A model generated the notes under the pieces. That model saw only the letters and a list, made by a program, of their open reading frames with translations, was not told the origin of the DNA and did not search any database. Below are positions 13,781 to 41,485 of a DNA stretch of 64,000 bases, piece by piece. The position numbers and the translations under genes are program-made. Numbering within the stretch: the first letter of the stretch is position 1; each line of letters opens with the position of its first letter. Source of the stretch: a bacterium (GTDB taxonomy: Bacteria; Patescibacteriota; Doudnabacteria; UBA920); assembly GCA_016699995.1 (NCBI GenBank), contig CP064996.1:528584-592583 (forward strand), written 5' to 3'.

Positions 13781-13783
13781 ATT

Positions 13784-16279: not shown

Positions 16280-17494
16280 CTACATCCCCATCATCTTAAT
16301 CAGACCATCCCGCTTCTTAGTCTCTGCCTTACTTGGCGGCAAAAAGGCACTATCTAGGTTAAAGTCCGTTCTGCCCGACTTTACGTTTTCCCCTAAAATA
16401 ATCTTGCGCGCTAAATATGTAAGCACGCTGCCGCACAAGTTAGCGGCATTACCCAGTTGCGGCCAAGAATAAATAGTCTTCCCTACCTGCATTACCGACT
16501 CTATCATGCGCACTGTGCTCATTTCTGCACCGGCCATCTTGGCAATTACCCGAGGCAAGTCTTGCGGGTGCACTTTGCTAAATTCCTGCGCCGTCATCTT
16601 GCCTAATATACCGTGCAGAATAGGATACTTTTTGTTTTGGTCGTAACGCTCGACGTCTACGATAATGCTGTCGGCGTTATCGGCGGCCATAATTACGGGA
16701 ATACCAAGTGGACGAGCTAATTCGCGGGCGCGCATCTTAAAGTACGGCTGATCCATTTCTTCTACCAACACATCCAGCTTTGCGGTACCTTTTAAGAACT
16801 TTGGCAAATTTTCTTTGGTTAAGCCATCAGCAAACAACTCTACTTTAGCATACGGATTCATTTCGTAAATCTGCCTAGCTACTGCTACAACCTTGGGTAC
16901 TTCTATATTTACAAACCCGGTACGAATGCGGTTCATGTTAGAGGCCGAAAGCACGTCTAAATCGGCCAACTTAATGTGCCTAGCGCCGCCCGTCATGGCG
17001 ATGGTTAGCGCCACATGGCTGCCTACACTCATGCCTAAAATACCGATTACCGAGTTGTAAAACTTCTTTTGTTCGCTGGCAGTAATTAAATTGCGGTTGC
17101 GGCCGGTGCGCACCTCTTGGTGCATAGCGTCCGGTAAAAAATGAATCACAGTGTGGAGCCAAGGATAGTAAAACCAATTGCCGCTAGTCACGTACTTGTC
17201 GCCCGAGCCGTTTTTGGCGGCAAACTGCTTAAACTCGCCGTGATAGTCTTTGTCGAACCTGTACTTAGGGTTGCGCAGCAAAAACACTTCTTCCAACTGG
17301 ATGGCATACTGGTCGATAACTTTTACCGGACGACGATCTGGCTTTACTCCGTTAGGCAGTTTAAGGCGGCGAATTTGCGCTTCGAAGTTCTTCCGCGCGT
17401 CTAGCTTTACCGGCTTAAACGAACTGCGGTCGAAATTGTCTTTGATTATGATTTTTTTTGCCATAGTTTTATAAACGGCGCCGCAACAGCGCAA
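16280..17494 (-). CDS. ThiF/MoeB/E1-like adenylyltransferase-fold protein with ~130-aa N-terminal extension, 404 aa
   Basis: GILGMSVGSHVALTIAMTGGARHIKLADLDVLSASNMNRI is the classic E1 Rossmann GxGxxG plus the D.D.V..SNLNRQ-like block. Confidence 0.7.
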   Translation of the reverse strand: MRCCGAVYKTMAKKIIIKDNFDRSSFKPVKLDARKNFEAQIRRLKLPNGVKPDRRPVKVIDQYAIQLEEVFLLRNPKYRFDKDYHGEFKQFAAKNGSGDKYVTSGNWFYYPWLHTVIHFLPDAMHQEVRTGRNRNLITASEQKKFYNSVIGILGMSVGSHVALTIAMTGGARHIKLADLDVLSASNMNRIRTGFVNIEVPKVVAVARQIYEMNPYAKVELFADGLTKENLPKFLKGTAKLDVLVEEMDQPYFKMRARELARPLGIPVIMAADNADSIIVDVERYDQNKKYPILHGILGKMTAQEFSKVHPQDLPRVIAKMAGAEMSTVRMIESVMQVGKTIYSWPQLGNAANLCGSVLTYLARKIILGENVKSGRTDFNLDSAFLPPSKAETKKRDGLIKMMGM

Positions 17495-17499
17495 ATTAA

Positions 17500-21252: not shown

Positions 21253-21885
21253 TTAGTCCTTAACTAATTCAGCCTTCACAATATATCTTTTGAGGGCCGT
21301 GCCAATCGGGTATGAAGTCTGCAGGGTCAAGATGCGCTTGCCTCTGGTGTTTTGCTCGAGCTGTTTGACGTCGTTGCTTTCTACTACGAACTTATCATAA
21401 ACTCTATAGACGTACTTCTCGCCCTCTTTGTTAGTAACGCTCACTTCGGCGCCGATTTGGATTTTAGGCAGCAACGCAAACACAGTTTTGTAATCACCCT
21501 TGCTAAAAGCAAAGTCGGACGAGTGGCCAAAGATGTAGCTATTGCCTTCGGCGCCAAACTCCGCGGTGCCGGGATAATGAACAACGCCGTTGGCTAGCGC
21601 GGCTTGAAACACCGGTTCGTTAGATTCGGTCACATACTGAATCGGTGCAACTACATCCAACGAAGGAATTTGAAGCTGGCTCGGCTCTTCTACAACTGGT
21701 CGCTCGCGGCGAATGTTCTCGCGCTGCTGTTCTGTTACAAATACCTGACTGGTGTAATAGCGAAGCTGCTTGAAGAAATATTCGTTGTTTAAGAGCGCGA
21801 AGATTGCTGCTGCCACGAGGACTGCGATCACTGCCCATTTTATAATTTTACCTAGCATAAATTGAATGTGCGCCGAAATGCGCAT
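21253..21885 (-). CDS. sortase-family transpeptidase homologue with Ser in place of the catalytic Cys (protein contains no Cys), 210 aa
   Basis: N-terminal TM anchor. His-motif IFGHSSD. The TLxTC block reads RILTLQTSYPIG (DNA acc ctg cag act tca tac). Arg follows in LKRYIV. Adjacent to an LPRTG-bearing substrate. Confidence 0.65.
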   Translation of the reverse strand: MRISAHIQFMLGKIIKWAVIAVLVAAAIFALLNNEYFFKQLRYYTSQVFVTEQQRENIRRERPVVEEPSQLQIPSLDVVAPIQYVTESNEPVFQAALANGVVHYPGTAEFGAEGNSYIFGHSSDFAFSKGDYKTVFALLPKIQIGAEVSVTNKEGEKYVYRVYDKFVVESNDVKQLEQNTRGKRILTLQTSYPIGTALKRYIVKAELVKD

Positions 21886-21894
21886 TAGTTGTTA

Positions 21895-21930
21895 AAAGAA
21901 AAAACTACCTTATTGCTAAGGTAGTTTTAT
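21895..21930 (-). terminator. rho-independent terminator after the giant surface-protein gene
   Basis: aaaactaccttagcaataaggtagttttttc on the minus strand. Confidence 0.6.
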
Positions 21931-21938
21931 TATATCAC

Positions 21939-24900
21939 TTATTTTTGTTTGCTTGCCTTAACCTCTACGGTCGCATATTTGGGCAATAACACGATGGTTA
22001 ATAATCCCAAAATAGTGAATACAATAGAAGCTGGGGTTCCGGTACGAGGCAATGTTGTAGCGCCTAATACAGAACCAGTAGGAGCGGGAGTTTCTTGGTC
22101 GCTAGGGGTATTAGTAGAATCTCCCAGGACTCGTCCTGTTGGTGGAGGTGGAGTTTGGCCACCGCCGCCTCCGCCCGAGCTTCCGCCAGAGCCGCCATTG
22201 CCGCCGTTGCCGCCGCGGCCATTGTCGAAGTTACCGAAGTTGACCCCTACAGCATCCCCTGCTGAAGTAATTAGCAAAGGTCCTGCTGCAGCATGAGCAG
22301 TTTTAATGAATAGTGAAGCAAAGAATCCTTGGCCAGAGTCGGTAAATAACTCGTTACAGTTATTAACTCCGCCCACGGCTACGTGATATGAATCAGAATC
22401 CACGTCTGGTTCTGTAACGATCCAGCCGCCCGGAGTGCTTTCTGTTACTAAATAGCAACCGGCTACTAGACCAGTAAACTGATAATTACCATTTTCGTCC
22501 GAGGTAGTACTGTCGGTAAAGGCTTCTTCTTCACCTAATTTTTCGATATTAATCTGCCAGCCTGGCAAACCAGACTCGCCTTCGTCTTTTGTGTTGTTAG
22601 CATTGGAATCTTCGTAAACTATTCCGCTAATTTTGTATCCGGAACCGCCGTTGCCGCCACCATTACAATCAAAGGTAACATCGTCCAGCTTGTAAATGAG
22701 CCCCGTTGGGTTATTAGGCTGGTCAAAAGCGTCGTTCTTTACTACAAATTTTAAGGTGTGAGTGCCAGCGGTTAACGCTAACGCGCCAGTCGTAGAAACT
22801 GTAGTAAAACCGCTGTTTGGAGCTGTACTGCCAACCAAAACATCGTCTAGATAAGCTTCTACAGAGTTGTCACCGGCGAAGCTCAATACAGGAGAATTAA
22901 TATTAATTGCCCCCGCAGGAATGGTAAAGGTATGAGAGAATAATCGGTAAGATTCTACGCCGCCGTTATAGCCGGCCGCGCCGCCAAATGTCGGCTGAGT
23001 AGAATCATTGCTTACGTAGCTGGCTCCAGCAATGGCCGAACCGCTCCAAGCTCCAGGATATCCGGTAGAATCCGCTGATTGTGCAAATCCCCAGCTTCCC
23101 AATGGATAATTGCCAATGTTAGTTGGAATTGGAGGTACAGAACCCTCACGAACACCCCAAGACAGAGTTACGCCTGCGGCGCTGGCTACAGAAATCGGCT
23201 CATCTACGCATGGGGCAATCTTTTCTATGTTGTACGCAATACAGTAAATATTCTCTGGGGTTGCTCCGTTAAGATTGATGAATTCTAGGTTGTCTCCGTT
23301 GAAGGCGTCGTCGTAACATCGCAGTGCAGCAAAATCATAACCGCCTTGAGTAACTTCGCTCACCCAGAAGTTGCCATTCTGAATGCCAGCCTGCAATTCT
23401 GCAGACAAAGCCGAGCCCGGACCATACGCAGCGGTGGTATAAGTACCATTAACGGTAGCTACGGTTTGGTTATCGTCATTTTGGTCTTGATCCGTAGACA
23501 GCAAGAACTGCCAGTTATGAGCCATGGCACAGCCATCCGGAATTTCCTCAGGATCGACGAAGCCGCCTACCAAAGGACTAGGTGAAAATGCGCCATTTGC
23601 ATAGTTATTGAAATAGACATAATTGCCGCCGGTAGCATCGTACGCGTCGCTCATTGCATTTCCTGCAACATCGCTAAAGCTGTCGCAAACTACTTTGATC
23701 AAATGCAGGTTTGGAACAACCGGTTCCGGCTGATTGCAGATTTCGTCTACTACACAAGCGTTAACTAGAGTGAAGCCAGGATTGCCGTCGAGCAATGGAT
23801 TCGGGCCTTCGACTGGACCATTCACAACTACGATATCGCCTTCCCCATCTTCATTCATCCAGCCATCCTGCATAATCTCACCCAAGCTGTATGTGCCGTA
23901 AGGAACATCATTCAAAGTTACACAGCCGTCTTCTTCTGTTACGCCAGAATAGACTTCGTAAATCTTCACAGTTAGCGGGCCGACGTTGTCGCCGAACCAT
24001 GCGGAGCTGCTATTATCAGCATCATTCTGGTTGGCAAAATCATAAACACGGAATTTAGCGGTAGAGCCGCTGCCGGTCATCAGATAGTTATAGGTATGAG
24101 ATGTATTGTAAGGGCCCCATTCTACAAAGCCGTCATCAACCTGAAGCTCAAGCAATTCATCTTGATACCCGCCCTGAGGAGCGTCTAAAACTGTGCTCCA
24201 ACCGTCCGGAGTAGTAAACTTGGCATCTACAGTTTCGAAACTGCGATTGCCCCACGTGCCACTGGCAACGGCCAAGTATTGCTTGCCGTTTTGCAATGTT
24301 GCAGAAGTAGTAGCCCCTAAAGGATTATTAGAGTTTACAGAAACAGTTTCTACTAGCTTGCCTTTTAGGAATACAGTCCAGCCAGATAATGGTTGATCAT
24401 TAGCATCGTTTACCTTACAAACAGTTACTTGAGATTCACAGCCAGTGTCACACTTGTTTACGAGGGTAAAGGTATCGCTGACACCGTCTACATTAGCGGT
24501 TTGGCCTTGGCCAGAAACGTTGGACCAGCCCTGCTGCATAACTTCGTCAACAGTGTAAGTTCCAAAAGGTACGTCTTTGAGGGTAATACAGCCGTTGTCC
24601 CCTGTTGTTCCTTTTAGCACTTTATAAATATCCACAGTTAAGCTGCCGGAGTTATCGGAATAGTTATCGTCCAAAATTCGGAAGTCCATTGCATCAGGAC
24701 CGCCAAGAGTACGGAAAGTAGAGTATTGGTGTGCCGGGTTAAAAGTAGAGCCCCAATCGGTGAACCCTTGATCAATCTGAATACCCAGCCAGCCAGTGTG
24801 AGGGTTTGGAAAATCGTTCACTCTCACCCATGGAGCAAAAGCCCCACCGTAAACAGGATCAGAAGGCAAGCGCTTAGAATACGCTGCATCAGAAGTAGAC

Positions 24901-26837
24901 GCGGCAGGATCGCCAGGGCGATATACGTAAGTACCGCTAGCTTCTACAACATATTGGCCAGCAGGCAAAGTTCCTGCGGTAGAATAGTCCGCGCCATCAG
25001 GATATACAGTCACTGTTTCAATTTTTGGACCCTTCAAATAAACTTCCCAGCCGGACAACGGATTCTGGTTGTTATCTAACTTACAAATAGTAACGTCGGA
25101 CAGACATTCCTGCTTAACGCTAACATCATCTACGAACGCTCCAAAAGAATCGCCCACCCCTTGGTCGCTGATTTCCAAACGAGTGACGCCGCTTGTAGCA
25201 GTAAATGTGTAAACATGTTCGGTCCAGACAGTATTAAGATTGCCAGTACCATCTTCTATAATTGTATCTAGGACAACTGCACCGGCCTTAACCTGGGTAA
25301 CATTCTGAGAAGAATTCTGCCCTGGACGAGGAGAAGTCCATAGTTTAACGGTATACTTGCCGCCGGGAACAGTGATTAAGTCTTGGAAAAGTTTAACAGA
25401 TCCATTTTCACCGTTAGTCGGGTCAGACGGGCCGCCCCAATCAGAATCTAGCTCAGTATGTTGAGAACCACTCTTAGGGTCCCAACCATTTACACCGCGA
25501 TGCAATTCGGCCTTTGCAATTGCAGGAGCACCGGTTGGATTAACCCAGTCTACACTCCAGCCTAGGCCAGGTGTACCAGAATCACGAACATCCCAGCTAT
25601 TAGAGAGTACAGGAGCTTCGAATCCACCATTAGCTACTAGCTCTGCACTACAAGGCTGTGGTGTTTTTAATTTATTAATAACTGTGTGAGTACATGGTTC
25701 TTGAGAATCTACGTCACAAACAACGTCAACACTTCCAACTGTTTGATCATCAACTTCCCAACCTGCTGGTAAGCCAGTTTCTGTAACGGTAATTTCTTGA
25801 CCATTATTAACGATTATTGCGTCGTGATTACAAACTAAAGTATCACCTTCATACTTACATGTAGCAGGTGCATTGCCGCCGTAGTTTACTGTAATGGTAA
25901 TATCATCTTTATTATCCGGAGCAGGAATTGGATTTCCTTGAGCATCCTGCCAAATTTTTTCAATTTCAATATCTACTGGAGTAGGTGTAGGAACAGGTTC
26001 AAAGTCATAGGTTGTAATCAATGAAGCAGTAGAAACCACCACTTTATCCAAATAACCATCTAATCCAGCGTCAGAAGCGGAAGTATCGCCAACATTCAAA
26101 GCAAACATGCGGATATTTGATCCTGAGCTAAAATTATTCATATCTGCCGGCACAGAAGGGCAAGTGTGAGGCGAAGGGTCTCCACCAGCTCTAGTTGTAA
26201 CTGGATAAGACTGTGTGGGATCAAATGTTACAGTTGTAAAACTACCTGTAGAACCAAAAGTTGGTACAACATTATATCTACAATCATAAAACTTGGTTGG
26301 GCTAGACGAACCAAAGTTTGCATAAACGTTCATGTAGAATTGCTCTTCATCAGTATTGTCACCGCCGCTGCCAATTTTAAAGTCATAGCTAATGCTATTT
26401 ATATCTACTATTAACTTGTTAATAAAATTTTCAGCGACCATCTTGTCTGCTGGTGTAGCTCCAATAGGTAAGACATTTAAGCTCCCCGACCCAATACTTG
26501 CCGCGTTTGTATTAAATGCAAAAGGAGTATCTGTGGAAGTATCACGGTTAAACATCCAGCCAGGTTGGTTTTCTCCAGCAGCTGTGTCGCCAGTAATAAT
26601 TATAGTATTACTTGGAATTGCTGGTGTATCTAAACTCTCACAACCACCCTGAGGCACAGGGTATACATCACCATGATTAATATGGGTCTGCAATGAATTT
26701 GAGTTTACACTTAAGCTATTGTATCCATTGCCAGTTTTGTGGCAAACATCAACAAAAGTTGTTGCCGCATAAGTGGTGGAGAGAGGTGCAAGCACTGTGC
26801 TTACCAAAGCAAAGCGCGATACGCCTTGATATGCCAA
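21939..26837 (-). CDS. giant (1632 aa) secreted cell-surface protein with LPXTG-type (LPRTG) C-terminal sorting signal, repeated SpaA/SdrD-B/prealbumin-like Ig domains, DUF642-like jelly-roll region and Gly-rich linker
   Basis: Signal peptide MAYQGVSRFALVSTVLAPLSTTYAA. Internal repeats (NPLSGWEVYLKG / QPLSGWTVFLKG; GTYTVDEVMQQGW / GTYSLGEIMQDGW). SdrD-B-like block SGIVYEDSNANNTKDEGESGLPGW...NGNYQFTGL. C-terminal LPRTG, then a hydrophobic stretch, then a KYATVEVKASKQK basic tail. Confidence 0.85.
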   Translation of the reverse strand: MAYQGVSRFALVSTVLAPLSTTYAATTFVDVCHKTGNGYNSLSVNSNSLQTHINHGDVYPVPQGGCESLDTPAIPSNTIIITGDTAAGENQPGWMFNRDTSTDTPFAFNTNAASIGSGSLNVLPIGATPADKMVAENFINKLIVDINSISYDFKIGSGGDNTDEEQFYMNVYANFGSSSPTKFYDCRYNVVPTFGSTGSFTTVTFDPTQSYPVTTRAGGDPSPHTCPSVPADMNNFSSGSNIRMFALNVGDTSASDAGLDGYLDKVVVSTASLITTYDFEPVPTPTPVDIEIEKIWQDAQGNPIPAPDNKDDITITVNYGGNAPATCKYEGDTLVCNHDAIIVNNGQEITVTETGLPAGWEVDDQTVGSVDVVCDVDSQEPCTHTVINKLKTPQPCSAELVANGGFEAPVLSNSWDVRDSGTPGLGWSVDWVNPTGAPAIAKAELHRGVNGWDPKSGSQHTELDSDWGGPSDPTNGENGSVKLFQDLITVPGGKYTVKLWTSPRPGQNSSQNVTQVKAGAVVLDTIIEDGTGNLNTVWTEHVYTFTATSGVTRLEISDQGVGDSFGAFVDDVSVKQECLSDVTICKLDNNQNPLSGWEVYLKGPKIETVTVYPDGADYSTAGTLPAGQYVVEASGTYVYRPGDPAASTSDAAYSKRLPSDPVYGGAFAPWVRVNDFPNPHTGWLGIQIDQGFTDWGSTFNPAHQYSTFRTLGGPDAMDFRILDDNYSDNSGSLTVDIYKVLKGTTGDNGCITLKDVPFGTYTVDEVMQQGWSNVSGQGQTANVDGVSDTFTLVNKCDTGCESQVTVCKVNDANDQPLSGWTVFLKGKLVETVSVNSNNPLGATTSATLQNGKQYLAVASGTWGNRSFETVDAKFTTPDGWSTVLDAPQGGYQDELLELQVDDGFVEWGPYNTSHTYNYLMTGSGSTAKFRVYDFANQNDADNSSSAWFGDNVGPLTVKIYEVYSGVTEEDGCVTLNDVPYGTYSLGEIMQDGWMNEDGEGDIVVVNGPVEGPNPLLDGNPGFTLVNACVVDEICNQPEPVVPNLHLIKVVCDSFSDVAGNAMSDAYDATGGNYVYFNNYANGAFSPSPLVGGFVDPEEIPDGCAMAHNWQFLLSTDQDQNDDNQTVATVNGTYTTAAYGPGSALSAELQAGIQNGNFWVSEVTQGGYDFAALRCYDDAFNGDNLEFINLNGATPENIYCIAYNIEKIAPCVDEPISVASAAGVTLSWGVREGSVPPIPTNIGNYPLGSWGFAQSADSTGYPGAWSGSAIAGASYVSNDSTQPTFGGAAGYNGGVESYRLFSHTFTIPAGAININSPVLSFAGDNSVEAYLDDVLVGSTAPNSGFTTVSTTGALALTAGTHTLKFVVKNDAFDQPNNPTGLIYKLDDVTFDCNGGGNGGSGYKISGIVYEDSNANNTKDEGESGLPGWQINIEKLGEEEAFTDSTTSDENGNYQFTGLVAGCYLVTESTPGGWIVTEPDVDSDSYHVAVGGVNNCNELFTDSGQGFFASLFIKTAHAAAGPLLITSAGDAVGVNFGNFDNGRGGNGGNGGSGGSSGGGGGGQTPPPPTGRVLGDSTNTPSDQETPAPTGSVLGATTLPRTGTPASIVFTILGLLTIVLLPKYATVEVKASKQK

Positions 26838-27191: not shown

Positions 27192-28091
27192 ATGAAAAAA
27201 CACGCCCATCGGCAAGTCTGCGCGGTACTTCCCCCGCATGTGAACGAAAACGACCTCGCCTGGTCCACTGGCCAGCTGGAATCGCTGTTTAATATCCGCA
27301 AGGGGGGGTTTTCCAGCCGCCGCTTGATTAAAATCATGAACGAATTCATAAGCGGCTACAGATTTATCCGCCACTACAAAAAAGCGGTCAGCGTGTTCGG
27401 CTCGGCCCGTTCTGGCTTTGGCGACAAAGTCTACCAGGATGCGGCCAAACTCGGCTTTGAGCTGGCCTCAGACGGATTCGCAGTCATCACCGGCGGCGGT
27501 CCCGGCATCATGGAAGCCGCCAACGCCGGCGCCCTCAAAGCAGGCGGCGAAAGCGTCGGCCTCAACATCCAGCTGCCGACCGAACAACGCATCAACAAGT
27601 TCGTTAACGAATCATCCTCATTTCATTATTTCTTTACCCGCAAGGTAATGCTCGCTTCGGCTTCTCAGATCTATGTATTCTTCCCCGGCGGATACGGCAC
27701 CATGGACGAATTGTTCGAAATGCTCACCCTCATTCAAACTAAAAAAGTCGACCCTATTTTAATCATTCTGGTAAACAAAACATTCTGGAAGCCCATGTTG
27801 AAGTGGGTAGAGCAATCCATGTACGAAAAAAACCGAGCCATCTCCAAGTCGGATCTTAGCCTATTCAAAGTTGTGGCCGATGCCGACGAAGCGGTAGATT
27901 TAATCCGCCATTTGGTTGCCCGCAAAAAAATTGCCAAACACCCGCGCGAACTGGTCGGCAGCTATGGCAAAACTCCGGGAGGCATTCGCATGCCCAAGCG
28001 CCGCGGAAAAGTAGCTCCGAAGGTAAGCGAGATCAAAATAACCAGCCAGGTAATAAAGAGCGGCAAAAAAACCTCCAAGCGCAGCAGATAA
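27192..28091 (+). CDS. LOG-family protein (TIGR00730; cytokinin riboside 5'-monophosphate phosphoribohydrolase / 'lysine decarboxylase-like') with Lys-rich C-terminal tail, 299 aa
   Basis: VITGGGPGIMEAANAGA and the PGGxGTxxE motif (FFPGGYGTMDELFE). About 58% GC, which differs from the flanks. Confidence 0.8.
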   Translation: MKKHAHRQVCAVLPPHVNENDLAWSTGQLESLFNIRKGGFSSRRLIKIMNEFISGYRFIRHYKKAVSVFGSARSGFGDKVYQDAAKLGFELASDGFAVITGGGPGIMEAANAGALKAGGESVGLNIQLPTEQRINKFVNESSSFHYFFTRKVMLASASQIYVFFPGGYGTMDELFEMLTLIQTKKVDPILIILVNKTFWKPMLKWVEQSMYEKNRAISKSDLSLFKVVADADEAVDLIRHLVARKKIAKHPRELVGSYGKTPGGIRMPKRRGKVAPKVSEIKITSQVIKSGKKTSKRSR

Positions 28092-28634: not shown

Positions 28635-28675
28635 ATAAAAAAAGGCAGTTCTAATCGAACTGCCTTGTATTAATT
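28635..28675. terminator. hairpin aaggcagttc-taatc-gaactgcctt between convergent genes (bidirectional terminator)
   Basis: 10-bp perfect stem flanked by A/T runs. Confidence 0.55.
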
Positions 28676-29224: not shown

Positions 29225-29968
29225 TTATAGTTCCTCCATACTTTTTGACGAGACCGCTCTTTGAGCAAGCCCCTTGATACTACAATATACAATATCCGGG
29301 AAAAAAGGCTTCTCGGTATAGTACACATTGTAGAAAACTTCACCCATTAGTGCCGCCACCCGCCAGTTGGTGAAAATCAGTTGGGGGGCTCCTGCGACAG
29401 CCAGTTCTTCACAACCGGCTTCGCCTGGATTCTTATCCTTTGGATCACCGATCGAAGGCGAGCTTTCGACTAGGGATTTAGTGAAATTTTCACCATCTTT
29501 CCTAATGTACAGCTGTACGCTTCCGTCGTCAAACTCATTTCCGCCGCAGATCATCACCGCATCGGCGAGATCTTCGAACCGTTCGGAAAAGAGCTTTCGT
29601 GAAGCATTATTATCCACTCCCATGAACACCAGATCATTTTCCCGGACATGCCGGTTGATGTTAGCCTTGGTTACGTACTCCATGACTGTCGATATTCTGA
29701 GATTGGTAAAATGCGCGACTTGATCTCTCAGAAGCTCGGCCTTATAGCCAAGCCCGTTGAAATTTTGTCTGGTAAAATTCCGTTCTTCTACTTTGTCGCC
29801 ATCGATGAGGACGATCTCCGTCTTTTCTCCACCTTCCTTATGGGCAAAGTGCAGAAATCGGCATAGGGGCGGGACAAGCCAGCCCCCAATGCCGCCACAT
29901 CCAACCACGACAATGCGGTTGAATTTATTGATCATTAGTTCCCTCCTTAACTGCCGTTTCAGTTGCAA
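29225..29968 (-). CDS. minimal E1-like (ThiF/MoeB superfamily) adenylyltransferase, 247 aa
   Basis: NRIVVVGCGGIGGWLVPPL...IVLIDGDKVEERNFTRQNF is the E1 nucleotide-binding signature. No rhodanese or Cys-rich C-terminal domain. 5' end overlaps JAB gene by ~44 nt. Confidence 0.75.
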   Translation of the reverse strand: MQLKRQLRRELMINKFNRIVVVGCGGIGGWLVPPLCRFLHFAHKEGGEKTEIVLIDGDKVEERNFTRQNFNGLGYKAELLRDQVAHFTNLRISTVMEYVTKANINRHVRENDLVFMGVDNNASRKLFSERFEDLADAVMICGGNEFDDGSVQLYIRKDGENFTKSLVESSPSIGDPKDKNPGEAGCEELAVAGAPQLIFTNWRVAALMGEVFYNVYYTEKPFFPDIVYCSIKGLAQRAVSSKSMEEL

Positions 29969-31667
29969 CCTCTACTATCACGGCATCCGCTTCCGGAGCC
30001 GTTGGAGCAACAATGACCGGCTCCAAAGGTGTCGGAACAGGCACATAGGGTGTTGTCAAACTTAACGGGTTTACAGCACTGTGCGGTATCTTCGAATTGC
30101 CGCTGACCGAAACTTCAGCCTTCGCCGGAGCATTTGCTTCGGGCAGGGCTGGAGGTTTCGGAGGCGGTCCTTCCCCTGGGAGGTACGGTGTCGTTCTCGA
30201 ACCGCTTCTCGAAAAGGCTCCGGGATTTTGATTCATCCCGGATTTTTGGGCCATCGGTTTATAAGGTGGCCTAAAAAAGGATCTTTCTCTCACCATATCG
30301 AACCAGGATGTTGGGAAGTTGATCTGTTTTGCAGAAGTTATTTGCTCCGGCAAAATCAAATCATATTCCTTTCCAGTTCTAGACACGCCGCCAAACCAGC
30401 CGCCGTCATTGCTGCTTTCGGATACATACCCCTTAACCGACGGCCTCGGATTGACATCCTTGACAGGTTCCGGTTTTGGGGCAGCACCTCCGATCGGAAC
30501 AATAGGCACGGTATATTTCCACAACCGATGCCATGCGCGATAGGTATAGTAGCGACAAACGCCAAGCTGATGGTCTTCTCCGATCTTGTTCTGAGCTACT
30601 TCCGGTCCATCGAGTTCCTGCCATGTCCTCCACTTAAGGGAGATACACAGCATGATAAAGAATGAAATCGGCAAAAACAGCCAGAACACCAACCGGTCTT
30701 CGAACTTCACTCGTTCCGGGTACTTAAGCGTCGGTCGGTAAGACACGCTTCTTCGTACCTGGTCTGCGATCGCCGGACTTGCTTTTCCATGACCAGGCAC
30801 TACCGGGGTTGGATCCCCAGGAATAACCTGGATCTTTGTTGCGATTACAGCAGGCGGTCCGTCTAACGGCTGCTCTTGCGGCTGCTCCACAGCCACAGGC
30901 TGGGTTTCGACAGCCGGTTCCGGAGTCTCGACCGGTTTTGGCTCTTCCGCCTCCTTGGCAGCTTTTTTGATGTTATAAAGAAGCTTGCCTAAGGTATTGC
31001 CTTGATAAGCACTGCCGTAACTTGTAAGGACAAGCCCGTCGATCACATCTTCCGGTTTAACTTTAAACCGGCTTGCGTTGACCGACAGTTCGGAGCTGAC
31101 GGAGAATCCGCCCCAATCCATATTCCCCAAAGTTACGTGCAGACCGTCGAAGTTGATCTCATCGTGAGTATCGGTACCAGAATGATAGGCCGCGAAACCT
31201 GCGTGGGAATGGATAGAACCAACCAGCAGGTAGCCCGGTTTGCGGGGCGGCGGCTTGTAAGAGATGCCTCCGCCCGAAACATCCTGTTCCGGACATCCGA
31301 AGAAATACTTTTGGTCGTGCAGCGAGTAATAGATTAAGACCATCGCTTCGGCCTTGCGGGCTTCATACACCATCTTAAAAAAGTAAGCGGTATGAATCAT
31401 CTCCTTCAGCGGCAGTTTAGGCAAAAGCCATTCTGCCGATTCGCGATGAGGCGCAAGGTCACCAATTGCCTTCACTTTCACCGTGGCGTCCAGCACGCTA
31501 GTTCTCTTATGAACGAACGGGCCGTTGGAAGCCAAGATGTAGTGATAATCAGGCGGCTGAAATCCTGGTGCAAATAGCGGAGCCCCCGTCCTTTTGATAA
31601 AGACCGGGATATCCCCATTATTGTTTGCAGTCGGCACAGCCGGAGTAACGTTTATCTTTTCTGTCAT
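29925..31667 (-). CDS. JAB/MPN+ (JAMM) metallopeptidase domain protein with Pro-rich linker, single TM helix and large C-terminal region, 580 aa
   Basis: JAMM motif GSIHSHAGFAAYHSGTDTHDE (HxHx7Sx2D) with upstream Glu. PEPAVETQPVAVEQPQEQP linker. TM LVFWLFLPISFFIMLCISL. Start overlaps upstream gene stop (ATGA). Confidence 0.8.
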   Translation of the reverse strand: MTEKINVTPAVPTANNNGDIPVFIKRTGAPLFAPGFQPPDYHYILASNGPFVHKRTSVLDATVKVKAIGDLAPHRESAEWLLPKLPLKEMIHTAYFFKMVYEARKAEAMVLIYYSLHDQKYFFGCPEQDVSGGGISYKPPPRKPGYLLVGSIHSHAGFAAYHSGTDTHDEINFDGLHVTLGNMDWGGFSVSSELSVNASRFKVKPEDVIDGLVLTSYGSAYQGNTLGKLLYNIKKAAKEAEEPKPVETPEPAVETQPVAVEQPQEQPLDGPPAVIATKIQVIPGDPTPVVPGHGKASPAIADQVRRSVSYRPTLKYPERVKFEDRLVFWLFLPISFFIMLCISLKWRTWQELDGPEVAQNKIGEDHQLGVCRYYTYRAWHRLWKYTVPIVPIGGAAPKPEPVKDVNPRPSVKGYVSESSNDGGWFGGVSRTGKEYDLILPEQITSAKQINFPTSWFDMVRERSFFRPPYKPMAQKSGMNQNPGAFSRSGSRTTPYLPGEGPPPKPPALPEANAPAKAEVSVSGNSKIPHSAVNPLSLTTPYVPVPTPLEPVIVAPTAPEADAVIVEVATETAVKEGTNDQ

Positions 31668-33271
31668 GCCTTCAATTTTCTCCTTAACATATTCTCAGAC
31701 AGCGTGAGCGGCGTAGCTTGTAGCCTTATAGGCACTTCTTCGCTTAGCTCCTCAAAATGATTTTGAACCGTTTCGTGAAAGCGCTCCACGATAGTATCGT
31801 GAAACCTGGCCACTAGCGCCGGATTCAAAGAGTCGGGGAATGCCTGGAAAAAATCTTCTCCAAACATCGACCACGCAGCCTTAATCTGCCTCCGCAAGTG
31901 TTCTTCTAATTTCTGAACAGTTACTTTGCCAAACTTGTTCTTTGTAGTCAGGTTCTCTTTGAGCTTTTTAGCGATTCGCTTGCCAACTCCGAGGCGGAAT
32001 TCCTCGCCAAAAGCGCGGATCACCTCTTCGGTGTTGCGGTCAACAGCTTTGCCGCCTTTGGTGGCTGCAATGCCGCTGCCGTAGTGATTGATGTAGTCCT
32101 CAAGCGTATAGCCCTTTCGCCAGGTTTCTGGCTCCAAGGCGAACGTATGATCTCGGATCGACAGGTCTTCCCACTTTTTAAAGCCTACTGCCGCGCCGCC
32201 GGAACCAGTATTGATTCCCGCCGGGAAGTAGACGTTGCCAGTCCAATGGCTATTAAACCGGCTTTCCCAAAAATGGCTGATGCCTCTCTGGATTTCGCGG
32301 TAAACATCCCGATTGGAACTACCTGGCAACTGCGTGCAGATTCTGTACATGTTGGCCGCGCTATCAAAGTTGGGTAGATTCGGCAGGTACAGCTGGTCGG
32401 TTCTTGACTCGATAGGTTTTAAACTATAGGCCATGGTCATGTTTTGGATCTGACCGCCAATCAACCGTATAAAGAAGACCGTGTAAGGGAAAGCCAGACG
32501 CATACGCGTCATTCCCCTTTCGGTTCGGCCCGCGATGGTGAAGTAGCTCTGATCGATTACAATCGTCCGAACGCGAGGTTCTTCTTCCACAACAACCAAA
32601 GCCTGGTCGCCGCTAGCAAAGAAGTACTTCACATTTTTCGGAAACACGTTTTGCGTGCCAATGGCAGCGTACTGTTTGGAAACGTCGATAATGTTTTTGA
32701 CGACTTTATCAAACGCTCCCTTCCACAAGCTCTCGATCTCCTGGACCAATTCGTCTTCCAGATAACCTGTAACTTCGTCTTTATAACTTGCCAATGCCTG
32801 GTCAACGATTTCTTGCGCCGTAGCCTTAACCGCCTTAAAGTCGGTGAACTCTTTTTCCATGGCCATCTTCGCTGCTACTTCCCTTGCTTTAGGGGCGAGG
32901 GACTTAACAATATGAGAGGCCAAGTCCATTGCAACATGGTTATCCATTTCTGTAAGCCCAGATAGCTGCCTCGAAGCGATCTTTAAACCAAGTTCGCGGA
33001 ATGCTCGAGTTTTGCTATCACCCAAAATCATGCCTTTGAACATGTCAAAGCTGACCTTTGCGATAGTAACTTCTGAATATATAGGTGTGGGCAAAAGCCT
33101 CCACCGGACATCAACACGACCTTTTATTAAGCTGGCAGAGCCATCTTCGTCCATCATAATGCGAGCGGGACGGTCGATCATGTCGAGATATTCAGGAGCA
33201 ACCTGCTCTACAAACCATTGCTTGATAACGCCGCTAAGCGTGTCATCAAAAGATTCGTACATTGCTGACAT
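31664..33271 (-). CDS. uncharacterised 535-aa protein, first gene of the Ubl operon; central segment resembles an E2/UBC-like active-site arrangement (hypothesis)
   Basis: AFPYTVFFIRL...LYLPNLPNFDSAANMYRICTQLPG resembles the E2 pattern (fP..Pf...F....HPN....G.ICL.iL), with LPN in place of HPN and one candidate Cys. The rest is unassigned. Confidence 0.4.
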   Translation of the reverse strand: MSAMYESFDDTLSGVIKQWFVEQVAPEYLDMIDRPARIMMDEDGSASLIKGRVDVRWRLLPTPIYSEVTIAKVSFDMFKGMILGDSKTRAFRELGLKIASRQLSGLTEMDNHVAMDLASHIVKSLAPKAREVAAKMAMEKEFTDFKAVKATAQEIVDQALASYKDEVTGYLEDELVQEIESLWKGAFDKVVKNIIDVSKQYAAIGTQNVFPKNVKYFFASGDQALVVVEEEPRVRTIVIDQSYFTIAGRTERGMTRMRLAFPYTVFFIRLIGGQIQNMTMAYSLKPIESRTDQLYLPNLPNFDSAANMYRICTQLPGSSNRDVYREIQRGISHFWESRFNSHWTGNVYFPAGINTGSGGAAVGFKKWEDLSIRDHTFALEPETWRKGYTLEDYINHYGSGIAATKGGKAVDRNTEEVIRAFGEEFRLGVGKRIAKKLKENLTTKNKFGKVTVQKLEEHLRRQIKAAWSMFGEDFFQAFPDSLNPALVARFHDTIVERFHETVQNHFEELSEEVPIRLQATPLTLSENMLRRKLKA

Positions 33272-33382: not shown

Positions 33383-33412
33383 CAAAAAATCCCTTAAATA
33401 TAAGGGATTTTT
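33383..33412 (-). terminator. rho-independent terminator of the rplM-rpsI transcription unit
   Basis: aaaatcccttatatttaagggatttttt on the minus strand, 15 nt after the rpsI stop. Confidence 0.65.
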
Positions 33413-33426
33413 GAGTATAAAAGGGA

Positions 33427-33987
33427 TTAACGCTTTGCCCACTGTGGCGAACGGCGCGCACCGCGGAGACCTGGCTTTTTTCGTTCCTTTTTACGGTCGT
33501 CTCGGGTCAAGAAACCGTTCTTCTTGAGCACGCTTTGAAGGTCGTTGTTAAGCTTAGACAAGGCCTGAGCTACGCCATGACGCACTGCTTCCACCTGGGA
33601 ATTGCGTCCGCCGCCGGCAACGTGGCTAGTAAAATAATACTCGCCCATCAAGCCGGTTACCGCCAAAGGACGGAGTGCAGTGTCTTGCTGCGGCTTGTTA
33701 GGAAAATAAGCTTCGAAAGCTTTCTTGTTAACAATATTGTCACCACTGCCTGCAAATAATCGCACGTTGGCAATCGCCGTCTTGCGTCGGCCGGTGGCAA
33801 AGATATATTTGCCGGAAGCAGGCTTGGCATGATCTGCAGTCTTCGCGCTAGAGGACTTTGCAACTACTGCCTTAACCTCCGCCTTTGGAGCTGCTTCCTT
33901 TTTTGGAGCAACTTTTTTAGCGACGGCCTTTGCAGGGGCCTTCTTGGCTACAGTTTTTTTAGCTGGAGTTTTCTTTGGAGTTACCAT
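33427..33987 (-). CDS. rpsI: 30S ribosomal protein S9 with ~60-aa Lys/Ala-rich (histone H1-like) N-terminal extension
   Basis: C-terminal ...GGGRNSQVEAVRHGVAQAL...KKPGLRGARRSPQWAKR matches the S9 end (..RRAPQFSKR). N-terminal PKKTPAKKTVAKKAPAKAVAKK low-complexity region. Confidence 0.9.
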   Translation of the reverse strand: MVTPKKTPAKKTVAKKAPAKAVAKKVAPKKEAAPKAEVKAVVAKSSSAKTADHAKPASGKYIFATGRRKTAIANVRLFAGSGDNIVNKKAFEAYFPNKPQQDTALRPLAVTGLMGEYYFTSHVAGGGRNSQVEAVRHGVAQALSKLNNDLQSVLKKNGFLTRDDRKKERKKPGLRGARRSPQWAKR

Positions 33988-36537: not shown

Positions 36538-37053
36538 TTATACCCTTCTCACTTTCTTCGGACGCACGCCGCCATGTGGGGTTGGGGTTCGATCTTTAAT
36601 GGTTAAAACAGTCAAGCCGGCACCGAGCAAAGCGCGAATGGCTTGTTCGCGGCCGCTGCCGATTCCTTTAATAAAAATATCAACTTCCTGCAAGCCGCGG
36701 TCTTTAACGCGGGACAATACATCTTCCATAGTTTTACCGCCGGCGTAAGGAGTAGATTTCTTAGAGCCTTTGAAGCCAGCTTTGCCGGCGCTACCCCAAG
36801 CAATCACGTTGCCGATCGGATCAGTTACAGAAATGATGGTGTTGTTGTAAGTGGAGTTAATAAAGATCTTGCCCTTTGGAACTTTGATCTTGTTCTTCTT
36901 TTTCTTACCGCCCTTGATCTTAGTGGCAATGTCGTCGCCGCTAGATGCTGCATTCAACTCGGCACTGACCTGTTCGGCTGCGCTCATTTCGGTAGCAGGA
37001 GTTTCGGCTACGGGAGTATCTTGTTTAATTGTTGTGTCGTTAGTATCAGACAT
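36538..37053 (-). CDS. rpsK: 30S ribosomal protein S11 (with acidic/Lys-rich N-terminal extension)
   Basis: GKIFINSTYNNTIISVTD...AWGSAGKAGFKGSKKSTPYAG...GIGSGREQAIRAL. Confidence 0.9.
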   Translation of the reverse strand: MSDTNDTTIKQDTPVAETPATEMSAAEQVSAELNAASSGDDIATKIKGGKKKKNKIKVPKGKIFINSTYNNTIISVTDPIGNVIAWGSAGKAGFKGSKKSTPYAGGKTMEDVLSRVKDRGLQEVDIFIKGIGSGREQAIRALLGAGLTVLTIKDRTPTPHGGVRPKKVRRV

Positions 37054-38227: not shown

Positions 38228-38842
38228 ATGACAACAGATTTCGATTTAGATAAATATCTTGAGGAAAGCGAAATGGGGCTTAAATCCAATTCGGTCCATA
38301 TCCGAAATTTTATGGACAAGCTCAGGGCTAGCTACGGTACCGGTTATTGGCTCCTGATGGAACGTGAGGAATTTACCGAGAGCGAGCAAAGCTACGGCAA
38401 ACGCCTGGTAAAAATGGCCCTTTACGATATTCGGCGCGGCCTCGAAACCGGCTCGCCCAGGAACGCCAAACTGCAAAATTTCCATGTCATCAGACTCTTC
38501 GGATGCCCGGAGCATGTTCGCGAGGTTCTTAACCTTCGCGGGTTCACCGCGCTATGGGATCACCACGATCGCAGTTACCGCTCGAGTATCTTCAAGTTTC
38601 TGGAAAAGAACGCGACAAAGGCCGATCTTCCACAATTGGAGGAGTTTCACGCGCGGCTCAACCAGATCGACTATGCCGCCAACGAGCGCGTCGACCCGGA
38701 GCTCGAAGGCGAATTCGAAAACGAATTCGACTTTGCTCTATCGTTTGATGACCCGTATGAGCGCAGAACAACCCCCAATGAGCTTTCTGGGTTCGACCAG
38801 CAAGATATGCGTCGCGTGCTGGATGCCATTTCCGGGTATTAG
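38228..38842 (+). CDS. hypothetical protein, 204 aa (GC-rich, ~54%)
   Basis: RBS ggagg 7 nt upstream. No motif recognised. Opposite-strand ORFs inside it are composition artefacts. Confidence 0.45.
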   Translation: MTTDFDLDKYLEESEMGLKSNSVHIRNFMDKLRASYGTGYWLLMEREEFTESEQSYGKRLVKMALYDIRRGLETGSPRNAKLQNFHVIRLFGCPEHVREVLNLRGFTALWDHHDRSYRSSIFKFLEKNATKADLPQLEEFHARLNQIDYAANERVDPELEGEFENEFDFALSFDDPYERRTTPNELSGFDQQDMRRVLDAISGY

Positions 38843-39682: not shown

Positions 39683-41485
39683 TTATTCTTCAATTTTTAT
39701 ATGAATCTTAGTTCCTAATCTTGGGAAAGATTTTTGCCAGCTTGGAGCTAAAGTGATGTCTGCCCGCTCGATATTTTGATTTGTTAATAAAATATCATTA
39801 GCTTGCTCCTTAGACTTCCCTGCTAGCTGAGCAACCAAATCCTGCTGGTCAATTTTAGCCTTTGCCTGGCTTTCATAATGAATAGACAGCTGCATCAAAC
39901 CAGCGGCGAGATCCAAATTCTTGATCTTATAAACCACCTGGTCCAAATCGGCTTCCTGCAAAGCCTTATCGCTGCCCAGGGTCTGGGTTAAGCGGCCACG
40001 TACCATTTGACGCAAATCATTTTCGTTAAATGCTAAACCAGTAATTTTAATATTGGCGCTGGCTACAAAAGTAGTGCTTTCGGTTCCTTCGGGCTTATCG
40101 GAAGTAAAATTACTAACTTCTACGTTATACGCCCCTTCTACCAACTTGCGGCCGTCAGATAAGCCATTGTTAACTTCCTCCACGGCTTTGCTAATCAGTT
40201 CCTTTTGTGCCCTGTCTAAATCTTCTTTGCTCACCACAGATACAAAGCGGGACGATCCGCCAATAACCTGGGTGACAGTTTTTGCGTACAGTCTCTGAGG
40301 CTGGCTGCCGAATGCCTGATTTGTAATTTCCACGCGTGTACCAGCCGGTAGATTAAAGTCCTCTCCCCCATCTGCGGCAATTATATCTGCTGTGGTTGCG
40401 TTACTGTCCTTGGATGGATTTTCTAAAGCAACAATTCCGTTTTGATCGCTTACGAAATAATATGACTTTGTGCCGACTGTTAATACTGTGGTACTGGTTC
40501 GCAAATTCATAGCGCTGCCAGTTAAGTTATAGATCGCTACGCGACCTTGCGCCTTGCTGCCGACTTCCTTTTTGCCATTTGTTGTAAAAGAATTGGAAGG
40601 AGCTTTAGTTTCATCTACCTTAGTGGCTGGCAAGGTTAGCCGGCTAGCGTCTACTGTCTCTAAATTAGTATCAATCGTTAAGTCTAGATCCCTGGCTACT
40701 GTCTGCGAACGGGCATACACCGTTACATTAGCGCTTGGCAGTACCATCACTACTAATGCCACAACAGCAATTAGAGCCAAAGCTACAAACGCCAAAGAGA
40801 ACTTTTTATACGAACGACGGCGCGGCGCCTTACTGCTCTTGCTGCTTGGTGGCATAAACATATTGTCAGCCTTTGTTCGCAACCCGCCAGTGGTTGGGGT
40901 AAGCCAATCATTATTCTCTAACGGACTTTGTCTAGCTGCGGCAACTTTTGCGCCGCGGTGTTCCAAAATTTTTCCGGCGGCGATGCCTGCTCCTACCATG
41001 GAACTTTTCGCTACTGGCTGGGCAGATCGGGATGCAACGCGCTCTGCTGATTTAGCTGCAACTTTGCGAACAACTTTTTTGGGCTTAGCCGCTGGTCTAA
41101 CTGCAGGGGCGATAAACTCATCTTGCATGTCTGATACAGGAGAAGGATTCACTTCATATCGGGCTTTACCAAATGTCATAACAGATTTAGAACCAGACTG
41201 AGGACGAATGTCGGAAAAGGTTTTGCTGCGAGAAATTTTTGGCAGGTTTTTTAAAGTGAAGCCGGCTTCGCGGGCATAAATCTGACCGGTTTCATCCATG
41301 GTTAAAATAGATACTTTAGAGCCTAAAATATCTGTCTGCTTTTTAAGCAATCGCAAATTTATGCTGTCGGCCAAAACATAAGCATCTTTAGGAATGACCA
41401 AAACCGCATCTTCGCCTTTCAGAGCCTTTACCTTGGCGACGATCCTGGCTACATCATCTTCTAAATTTAAATAAATCGTTTTCAT
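39683..41485 (-). CDS. hypothetical single-pass membrane protein, 600 aa (cytoplasmic N-domain, Ala/Lys-rich linker, TM helix, large extracytoplasmic C-domain)
   Basis: TM FSLAFVALALIAVVALVVMVL near residue 235. No catalytic motif recognised. Confidence 0.45.
   Translation of the reverse strand: MKTIYLNLEDDVARIVAKVKALKGEDAVLVIPKDAYVLADSINLRLLKKQTDILGSKVSILTMDETGQIYAREAGFTLKNLPKISRSKTFSDIRPQSGSKSVMTFGKARYEVNPSPVSDMQDEFIAPAVRPAAKPKKVVRKVAAKSAERVASRSAQPVAKSSMVGAGIAAGKILEHRGAKVAAARQSPLENNDWLTPTTGGLRTKADNMFMPPSSKSSKAPRRRSYKKFSLAFVALALIAVVALVVMVLPSANVTVYARSQTVARDLDLTIDTNLETVDASRLTLPATKVDETKAPSNSFTTNGKKEVGSKAQGRVAIYNLTGSAMNLRTSTTVLTVGTKSYYFVSDQNGIVALENPSKDSNATTADIIAADGGEDFNLPAGTRVEITNQAFGSQPQRLYAKTVTQVIGGSSRFVSVVSKEDLDRAQKELISKAVEEVNNGLSDGRKLVEGAYNVEVSNFTSDKPEGTESTTFVASANIKITGLAFNENDLRQMVRGRLTQTLGSDKALQEADLDQVVYKIKNLDLAAGLMQLSIHYESQAKAKIDQQDLVAQLAGKSKEQANDILLTNQNIERADITLAPSWQKSFPRLGTKIHIKIEE

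Follow-up and report, generated by a model that had tools for sequence, protein, structure and literature searches.

Ubiquitin-like conjugation in bacteria has recently become experimentally tractable through the Cap2/Cap3, Bil and Bub systems and, to our knowledge, every bacterial ubiquitin-like system characterized so far has brought to light either novel chemistry or a novel way of countering viruses. The branch known as 6d was predicted in 2006 (PMC1779556). Its operon encodes a ubiquitin-like protein (Ubl) with a C-terminal glycine, a JAB protein with an extra N-terminal domain, an activating enzyme (E1) and a protein resembling conjugating enzymes (E2-like) in which a histidine downstream of the cysteine is absolutely conserved (Iyer, Burroughs & Aravind 2006, PMC1779556). 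This type 6d operon is the same as the PRTRC cassette and its E2-like protein the same as Pfam Prok-E2_D; of the kinds described, it is the closest to a four-gene cassette found in a Doudnabacteria genome of the Candidate Phyla Radiation (CPR). The cassette lies in a stretch of 64,000 nucleotides of contig CP064996.1 (assembly GCA_016699995.1, positions 528,584 to 592,583), which was analyzed whole and is referred to below as the window. Its first gene (gene 1), annotated in the public record as "hypothetical protein IPM19_03000" on a 943-kb contig from a metagenome, encodes a 535-residue protein that is probably a divergent, enlarged member of the Prok-E2_D/PRTRC_B (type 6d) lineage and the conjugating enzyme of the cassette.

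Conservation of the Cysteine-containing Block

An earlier reading of the window (the sequence-only reading), made from its letters and a list of translated open reading frames (ORFs), had drawn attention to an E2-like "LPN...C" stretch in the 535-residue protein, with a cysteine about 12 residues on. Residues 259–316, the stretch then quoted, read LAFPYTVFFIRLIGGQIQNMTMAYSLKPIESRTDQLYLPNLPNFDSAANMYRICTQLP. Cys312, which is the sole cysteine of the protein, is found 11 residues after Asn301. The bare pattern alone is not above chance: [HL]PN.{6,12}C has one match, the protein itself, among the ORF segments of at least 100 residues in the window (25,834 residues), and residue shuffling gives an expectation of 0.47 ± 0.67 matches per window.

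An exhaustive HMMER scan of 1.84 billion representative sequences returned 467 relatives at E ≤ 1e-3, of which 99 were at E ≤ 1e-10, most of the matches covering approximately residues 204–396 of the query. Word-indexed homologue searches with the single sequence and with the family profile returned the query itself alone. Alignments were built of 90–150 relatives, and conservation was read from the columns of the 150-sequence alignment. Pro262 was present in all 150 sequences and Cys312 in all 149 that cover the position; Asn301 was conserved in 144 and Trp335 in 148 of the 150. Over the entire protein, conservation peaks in the 20-residue windows 282–301 and 256–275, both in the quoted stretch. 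The family consensus is P.GTRF..G...VIEQ.PQVRT...LAFPYvVF...YR..PL.SL.D.LY.PNLPNi....VC.G...I..FW.S.FN.D...W...DP.F., and the column of residue 342, which is histidine in the query, contains Asp in 109, His in 17 and Glu in 7 of the 150 sequences. In the consensus the Cys lies at +8 from the Asn, matching UBE2D2 (N77/C85); a short insertion in the query relative to the consensus lengthens this spacing to +11. Despite the chance-level occurrence of the bare pattern, conservation across relatives therefore indicates that the LPN...C stretch is real, and the feature singled out by the sequence-only reading proves to be the best conserved block of the family.

Relationship to Prok-E2_D and Canonical E2 Proteins

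The JAB and E1 proteins of the cassette best resemble PRTRC_A and PRTRC_ThiF, respectively, which led to comparison with a PRTRC-type locus (L005) from a Leptolyngbya plasmid that was retrieved via its E1. The gene just upstream of JAB in this locus is PRTRC_B (PRTRC_B model, E = 8.9e-16; Pfam Prok-E2_D, E = 1.8e-26). When homologues of the 535-residue protein were scanned singly, Prok-E2_D (PF14460) was matched by 38 of 90 at E ≤ 0.1, the best at 7.4e-8 and relative P0042 at 2.8e-4, and no other domain recurred. The query itself falls below the curated threshold of PF14460 (25 bits), with no match at E ≤ 1 to PF14460 or TIGR03737. Given that the query is unmatched while 38 of 90 relatives are matched, its membership of Prok-E2_D is at the superfamily or transitive level only.

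Profile-profile comparison (hhalign) of the family alignment with a PRTRC_B alignment gave a probability of 91.7% and an E-value of 7.7e-7 over 112 columns, placing query residues 219–347 on PRTRC_B residues 93–204. In this register, L299-P300-N301 falls on P-L-P-N, Cys312 on the invariant Cys171 of PRTRC_B, and FW.S.FN.H on AW..F..S.FSGH, such that His342 occupies the position of the invariant PRTRC_B residue His200 (FSGHE). A shallow 13-sequence alignment gave a weak match (E = 0.03) with the register unchanged. In control searches, the PRTRC_B hidden Markov model (HMM) yielded 67 matches in real sequences, 2 in reversed sequences and 0 in shuffled sequences, and the family HMM found PRTRC_B in 12 of 12 cases and none in reversed sequences. 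Homology of the 535-residue family to Prok-E2_D, with the cysteine in register, is thus supported by transitive and profile-level comparison.

Canonical E2 proteins were represented by UBE2D2, UBE2I and UBE2N, for which the identities of the reference sequences were confirmed against the PDB. The single best local hhalign alignment placed LY.P.LPNi..VC.G on IYHPNV..G.ICLDIL, equating LPN with HPN and Cys312 with the catalytic Cys85 (score 23.1, E = 0.008), and none of 120 column shuffles reached this score (mean 12.9, S.D. 2.4, maximum 20.6). The same active-site block was aligned when PRTRC_B was compared with the canonical E2 proteins. The families in which the sequence-only reading had proposed to look for a match did not provide one: UQ_con was not matched by the query at E ≤ 1 and was outside the 25 Pfam families most often matched by 90 relatives, and the BilB and Cap2 models were matched by 0 of 90 family members.

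Searches of PDB sequences, made with either the query or the family profile, returned helical or low-complexity matches alone, all at E ≥ 0.016 (the Cullin-3 N terminus, apolipoproteins and designed bundles). Library scans of the query (Pfam, PADLOC, NCBIfam and PHROGs) gave noise alone, for example matches to DUF7326 (0.028), a UFL1-like model (0.24) and HORMA (0.019), which were regarded as coiled-coil or compositional and set aside.

Predicted Structure and Weight of the Assignment

A single-sequence AlphaFold2 model of the 535-residue protein was uninformative, with a predicted local distance difference test (pLDDT) score of 39.6, but the model obtained with the 150-sequence alignment had a mean pLDDT of 79, with much of the core at 90 or above. 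The latter model comprises a β-hairpin (residues 37–73), long helices (75–205), six strands (214–283), the loop containing LPN and Cys312, helices at 323–336 and 359–379, and a C-terminal helical region (390–534). Three parts may thus be distinguished: an N-terminal β-hairpin with helices (approximately residues 1–205), the E2-like core (approximately 205–400) and a C-terminal helical part (approximately 400–535), the helical regions making up about 60% of the modeled protein. The order of helix, β-meander, cysteine loop and helices is compatible with a ubiquitin-conjugating (UBC)-like layout with extra strands. A Foldseek search of this model against the PDB gave no match, and none to the UBC fold. 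Against BFVD, four uncharacterized phage proteins were recovered, the best being A0A7R7G2H5 (241 residues, E = 1.3e-9, target-normalized template modeling score 0.59), and these matches pointed to viral relatives.

Several observations weigh against assignment of the protein as an E2. No E2 model of the Pfam, NCBIfam, PADLOC or PHROG collections was matched by the query. The alignment with canonical E2 proteins spans 20 columns alone, at a probability of 4.8%. The core has six strands, as compared with four in the textbook UBC fold, and the downstream histidine described as absolutely conserved in type 6d E2-like proteins is Asp in 109 of 150 relatives. The Prok-E2_D/PRTRC assignment is itself purely computational, and a literature search found no experimental or functional study of PRTRC or Prok-E2_D. 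Finally, the His of HPN is replaced by Leu in the query. The resemblance to a UBC active site noted by the sequence-only reading is therefore supported, with reservations: the link to Prok-E2_D and the alignment of the HPN...Cys block favor it, but the signature His is Leu.

These observations raise the question of an E2-derived fold that does not function as a thioester-forming E2. Such a protein might be an RWD/UEV-like adaptor or an E1 scaffold, in which case the E1 would transfer the Ubl directly, or it might use Cys312 and His/Asp342 for other thiol chemistry, as a peptidase or a transglutaminase-like enzyme. Bacterial cassettes often include E2-like domains that are inactive, as in type 6e (PMC1779556), and the Bub E2 departs from textbook chemistry by forming a Ser oxyester (PMC11601596); the missing HPN His and the large helical fraction are in keeping with either version. 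However, RWD/UEV-like inactive domains are without the cysteine, which is here invariant in 149 of 149 sequences, the HPN-like Asn is at canonical spacing in the consensus (+8, as in UBE2D2), and the operon already encodes a dedicated peptidase in its JAB protein. A function other than that of an E2 consequently appears unlikely, and membership of the Prok-E2_D lineage as an active conjugating enzyme remains the preferred reading.

Operon Layout and Partner Genes

The coordinates of the cassette and of the features discussed above are collected in Table 1. Gene 1 is a minus-strand ORF with an ATG start at 33271, preceded by a TTGACT −35-like hexamer and an AGGAGG Shine-Dalgarno sequence. The hairpin that follows rpsI (33412–33385) separates it from the upstream unit, and the 535-residue protein is therefore encoded by the first gene of its own operon. 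Only four genes lie between the two terminator-like hairpins, tightly packed and translationally coupled; the stop codon of gene 1 overlaps the ATG of gene 2 (ATGA at 31664–31667). The operon has a G+C content of 0.50–0.51, most of the window being at about 0.43–0.48. No RNA element was detected by Rfam in the window.

Table 1. Features of the cassette and of the 535-residue E2-like protein, numbered from the first nucleotide of the window
Feature	Position	Strand	Basis
Gene 1, E2-like protein, 535 residues	31664..33271	-	ORF list; 467 homologues; AlphaFold2 model with alignment
Family-conserved core of gene 1 product, residues 204–396	32084..32662	-	most homologue matches cover about 204–396
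Active-site block, residues 259–316 (LAFPY strand ... LPN ... Cys312)	32324..32497	-	translation; most conserved windows
Codon of Asn301, HPN-like Asn	32369..32371	-	N in 144/150; aligned to PRTRC_B N162 and UBE2D2 N77
Codon of Cys312, predicted thioester-forming residue	32336..32338	-	C in 149/149 covering; aligned to PRTRC_B Cys171
Codon of His342, position after FW.S.FN helix	32246..32248	-	D/H/E in family
Gene 2, JAB/JAMM metallopeptidase, 580 residues	29925..31667	-	Prok-JAB and PRTRC_A (TIGR03735) matches
JAMM motif H153-S-H-x7-S-x2-D of gene 2	31170..31211	-	intact; upstream catalytic Glu is E107
Gene 3, minimal ThiF-type E1, 247 residues as listed	29225..29968	-	PF00899 and PRTRC_ThiF (TIGR03736) matches
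Gene 4, tandem Ubl (ThiS/MoaD-type β-grasp-like), 173 residues	28696..29217	-	translation, ribosome-binding site, weak domain matches
Terminator-like hairpin ending the upstream rpsI unit	33385..33412	-	12-bp stem then T-run; strong
Bidirectional terminator-like hairpin after gene 4, operon end	28642..28666	both	10-bp stem; T-runs on both strands

Gene 2 encodes the JAB protein (Prok-JAB, E = 5.5e-4; PRTRC_A TIGR03735, E = 1.6e-8). Its orthologues, 33–42% identical, adjoin every gene-1 homologue, the conserved N-terminal part being residues 20–217 or thereabouts. Glu107 and the JAMM motif are retained in all eight full-length orthologues that were aligned, a comparison that does not extend to the L008 ORF, which is shortened by start-codon choice. 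The 360-residue C-terminal extension (approximately residues 220–580) is Pro-rich and poorly conserved; it has one transmembrane-like segment (324–346), which is absent from the six orthologues reached by the hydropathy scan. Several JAB orthologues share a C-terminal motif, LP..QDYRHV.FP.sW.D.V, which reads FPTSWFDMV in the window protein.

Gene 3 probably starts at ATG 29935, giving a product of 236 residues. It matches PF00899 (E = 1.7e-12) and PRTRC_ThiF TIGR03736 (E = 5.2e-15), and the ThiF and MoeB models more weakly; among PADLOC models it matches E1-E2 at 1.8e-10 and BilD at 0.011. A single adenylation domain is present, with GxGxxG, RQ and DN motifs. A conserved GCEELA..PQL segment contains Cys186 (29411–29413), and every orthologue ORF whose alignment extends over this residue retains it.

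The likelier start of gene 4 is ATG 29217, which is preceded by a GGAGG that lies inside the end of gene 3, rather than GTG 29343. The encoded protein contains two ThiS/MoaD-like repeats, shows weak Pfam matches to ThiS, Ub-Mut7C and TGS, and ends in ...EFAKDAGEKG-D. Orthologues end in G.KG, four of them exactly at the Gly, two with one further residue and one with a long tail. A C-terminal Gly conserved in this way classically marks a Ubl that is activated there, in some cases after trimming, as is predicted for the gene 4 product.

The ORF, the stretch quoted from it and its position as first gene in an operon are all as the sequence-only reading described. Its further proposal, that the operon specifies an E2, a deubiquitinating enzyme, an E1 and a Ubl, is borne out at the level of predicted activities by the intact JAMM motif, the conserved E1 Cys186 and the C-terminal Gly of the Ubl.

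Distribution of the Cassette

Twenty-one other loci with a relative of gene 1 were examined (L001–L004 and L006–L022). The full cassette, with JAB, E1 and Ubl detected by tblastn beside the gene-1 homologue, was found in 17 (L002, L004, L006–L009 and L011–L021), in the order gene 1, JAB, E1, Ubl in all but L009, where JAB-E1-Ubl precedes the gene-1 homologue. L003 is partial, with JAB, E1 and a 160-residue ORF that weakly matches the Ubl (E = 9e-4), as is L010, which has JAB and Ubl but no E1 detected by tblastn. By gene calls alone, the layout of L022 is alike (549 residues, 416 residues, a weak ThiF and 151 residues), and L001 is uninformative on neighbors as it ends just after the gene-1 homologue. 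In whole or in part, the cassette recurs in 20 of the 21 loci. The hosts in the genome collection are metagenome-assembled genomes (MAGs) of Candidatus Saccharibacteria, Buchananbacteria and Uhrbacteria, with one MAG labeled Gammaproteobacteria and one unclassified MAG.

A pattern scan of IMG/VR yielded 11 matching contigs (L011–L021, 24–527 kb), all of which carry the full cassette. A tblastn search of the GenBank phage collection with the query gave no match, and the phage relatives were found via the BFVD fold search and the IMG/VR scan alone. The IMG/VR contigs look genuinely viral; in those with listed ORFs, nearly all genes are on one strand. The phage E2-like protein is larger, at approximately 860–884 residues in the loci for which ORFs were listed (L013, L014, L015, L017 and L021), and the cassette spans, for example, L015:7839-13282 and L013:1947-7362. 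Genes for a helicase, an SbcCD-like protein and a radical-SAM protein lie upstream of the cassette in L015, and genes for the β-subunits of a phage multisubunit RNA polymerase (phrog_2987 and phrog_2986) lie just downstream in L013 and L021. The E2-like protein of L015 shows a weak match to Prok-E2_D (0.0026).

In the phage versions, the Ubl (L015:12794-13282) has a Rho_N-like (HeH/SAP-type) domain at its N terminus, and the gene after the Ubl encodes a further ThiF-family protein, of shorter length (L015:13350-14252, L013:7447-8373), the L013 copy matching phrog_19840, a PHROG that is also matched by the window E1. Three loci contain two paralogous E2-like proteins, L004 (8001-10127), L009 (6001-6507 and 9346-9807) and L011 (7764-10069), their genes lying either next to each other or on both sides of the cassette, which suggests duplication and specialization, perhaps for different targets.

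The composition of the cassette also bears on a second alternative, a sulfur-carrier pathway of the ThiS/MoaD/CysO/TtuB type in which the JAB protein would unmask the C-terminal Gly of the small protein and the E1 would adenylate and thiocarboxylate it, leaving the 535-residue protein as a persulfide relay or an unrelated accessory rather than an E2. JAB and sulfur-carrier pairs are known (CysO/Mec+, PMC1779556), and a single invariant Cys could bear a persulfide; the E1 is of the minimal ThiF/MoeB-like kind, although it matches PRTRC_ThiF better than either model, and the small protein has weak ThiS matches. Among the annotated neighbors in the minority of loci scanned, however, there was no ThiG, MoaE, CysM, TtuA, rhodanese or cysteine desulfurase. 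Moreover, the cassette adjoins replication and transcription genes in phage genomes, and homology of the 535-residue family to Prok-E2_D, with the Cys in register, argues against such a pathway. This pathway is considered decidedly improbable.

That the motif arose by chance in a protein unrelated to E2 proteins, with JAB, E1 and Ubl working without it, would fit the expectation for the bare pattern and the lack of a direct library or E2-fold match, but is considered to stand refuted by profile comparison and synteny, namely the invariant Cys in the most conserved block of a family of 467 homologues, the Prok-E2_D matches of 38 of 90 relatives, the profile-profile E-value of 7.7e-7 with clean reversed and shuffled controls, and strict synteny with JAB-E1-Ubl in chromosomes and phages. 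Assignment of the 535-residue protein to the Prok-E2_D/PRTRC_B lineage accordingly remains the reading on which the following sections build.

Other Features of the Window

Just beyond the operon is a gene for a LOG/SLOG-family protein (PF03641, E = 1.2e-30; LDcluster4; 27192-28091, plus strand). An LDcluster4 protein is also found near the cassette in L002 (1126-1686), which may be coincidence. A second ThiF-family protein (404 residues; PF00899, E = 1.9e-16), extended at its N terminus by 130 residues, is encoded 12 kb away (within 16280-19047, minus strand), beside a 515-residue protein that has an adenylate-forming-enzyme-like SGTTGEP motif and no Pfam match. Similarity of the second ThiF protein to the cassette E1 is limited to the nucleotide-binding loop, and the genes of this region may represent an unrelated ThiF-based pathway.

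An island of low G+C content (11180-15748, minus strand; 0.36 as compared with about 0.45) encodes a type III restriction-modification pair, consisting of a Res-subunit helicase (866 residues, PF04851) and an N6/N4 DNA methylase (654 residues, PF01555), and was probably acquired horizontally. In the region 21253-26837 (minus strand), a 1632-residue repetitive surface protein with a Gly-rich spacer, a C-terminal LPRTG sorting signal and a hydrophobic tail is encoded directly beside a sortase gene (210 residues, PF04203); together, the LPRTG surface protein and the sortase indicate a Gram-positive-type envelope, as in Saccharibacteria. Ribosomal protein S9 (33427-33987, minus strand, 186 residues) is extended at its N terminus by about 55 residues rich in Lys, Ala and Pro, and a long N-terminal extension is likewise present in S11 (36538-37053). 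Two ORFs near the ribosomal cluster (38228-38842, plus strand, 204 residues; 39683-41485, minus strand, 600 residues) have no Pfam match, the longer containing a central hydrophobic segment.

Proposed Mechanism and Significance

A working scheme for the cassette may be proposed, each step of which is inferred from homology. The JAB peptidase would remove the single Asp that follows Gly172 of the Ubl precursor (GEKG|D), whereupon the minimal E1 would adenylate Gly172 and then probably hold the Ubl as a thioester on Cys186, in a crossover-type loop. The Ubl would pass to Cys312 of the E2-like protein, where Asn301 of LPN (the HPN equivalent) and residue 342 (His in the query and mostly Asp among its relatives) may shape the active site. 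No E3 is encoded, and it is therefore probably left to the large helical N- and C-terminal arms of the E2-like protein to recognize the target, onto a lysine of which the Ubl would be transferred; the BilB E2 of Bil operons has likewise been proposed to choose its target (PMC11601596). The JAB peptidase could, in addition, reverse the mark.

Because both CPR/Patescibacteria chromosomes and large phages carry the cassette, the likeliest interpretation is that it moves horizontally as a module and acts in conflict between phage and host. A wider possibility, put forward tentatively, is that the cassette represents an undescribed, self-contained "giant E2" conjugation system, in which a Prok-E2_D-derived core bears its own helical target-recognition arms and which is shared by ultra-small CPR bacteria and large phages that encode their own RNA polymerase; in the phages it might modify proteins of the host or of the phage in the course of infection, serving takeover or counter-defense, with a captured copy used for defense or regulation in CPR bacteria. 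A literature search turned up no account of cassettes of this kind, either in CPR bacteria or in phages.

The cassette can be regarded as a compact four-gene version of the 6d branch with an unusually large E2 and an unusual natural distribution. The predicted catalytic residues are clear targets for mutation, comprising Cys312, Asn301 and His/Asp342 in the E2-like protein and Cys186 in the E1. If active, the system would extend ubiquitin-like signaling to CPR bacteria, where dedicated tagging would be notable given their reduced genomes, and would mean that phages carry entire cascades of E1, E2, deubiquitinating enzyme and Ubl, such that the question of who tags whom in infection becomes testable. 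In the meantime, gene 1 and its relatives can be annotated as E2-like in place of "hypothetical protein".

Comparison with Known Systems

With canonical UBC-type E2 proteins of eukaryotes and archaea (UQ_con), the 535-residue protein has in common an active-site block that aligns as (L/H)PN-x7-8-Cys, and its order of predicted secondary structure is compatible with theirs. It differs in giving no UQ_con HMM match, in having Leu for His, and in its extra strands and very large helical additions.

The Bub (6E/DUF6527) systems are likewise divergent bacterial E1/E2/Ubl cassettes with an E2 that is hard to recognize by sequence, and their Ubl proteins are structurally diverse, with one to three β-grasp domains. 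Bub enzymes use Ser on the E2 and Tyr on the E1, forming oxyesters, together with a DUF6527 serine protease (PMC11601596). Membership of this group was rejected, since the E2-like protein and the E1 of the window each have a conserved Cys, the peptidase is a JAB protein, and DUF6527 was not matched in the Pfam scans made.

Resemblance to Cap2/Cap3 of the type II cyclic oligonucleotide-based antiphage signaling system (CBASS) lies in an E1 of the ThiF type that is akin to the E1 portion of Cap2, a JAB protein as antagonist or processor and E3-independent conjugation. The window, however, encodes a dedicated Ubl in place of the CD-NTase (cGAS/DncV-like nucleotidyltransferase) substrate. The cassette was not classed as type II CBASS given that its E2-like protein and E1 are encoded by separate genes, that no cyclase or effector is present in the operon, and that the E2 core has no Cap2 match.

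Bil operons are closer in content, with four separate genes and the same four predicted activities (BilA, Ubl; BilB, E2; BilC, JAB; BilD, E1). They too have no E3, the E2 being presumed to pick the target (PMC11601596), and the two β-grasp-like repeats of the window Ubl recall ISG15 and BilA. Gene order and E2 size differ. The BilD E1 has a tandem IAD-AAD-CYS architecture (PMC11601596), whereas the window E1 has one adenylation domain in 247 residues; this, together with the BilD match at E = 0.011 and the absence of BilB matches for the query and 90 relatives, led to rejection of Bil membership.

Differences from the PRTRC/6d cassettes are also evident. The three enzymes of the window fall below Pfam and NCBIfam thresholds, and the E2 core resides in a protein of 535 to about 880 residues with helical arms, as compared with about 230–250 residues for PRTRC_B. 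The downstream residue is mostly Asp in the window family rather than an absolute His. ParB, PRTRC D/E/F and a separate α-helical protein were neither present in the window operon nor called in L002–L004 and L022. Derivation of the helical arms from the PRTRC α-helical or neighbor protein was considered and discarded, as the arms showed no similarity to the product of the gene upstream of PRTRC_B in L005. The hosts are CPR bacteria and large phages, whereas PRTRC cassettes occur on proteobacterial and Bacteroidetes plasmids and integrative and conjugative elements (ICEs).

The likeness to PRTRC/6d is nonetheless the most extensive. The E2-like cores are homologous, and both are without the HPN His while having a conserved Asn, an invariant Cys and a polar residue at the position of the downstream His (His342 in the window protein). 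The JAB and E1 proteins are nearest PRTRC_A and PRTRC_ThiF, the Ubl has a C-terminal Gly, and the operon content is that of type 6d, in which a JAB protein bearing a JAB-N domain is joined by an E1 and a small Ubl. Both kinds of cassette are, in addition, associated with mobile elements, PRTRC with plasmids and ICEs and the window-type cassette with phages.

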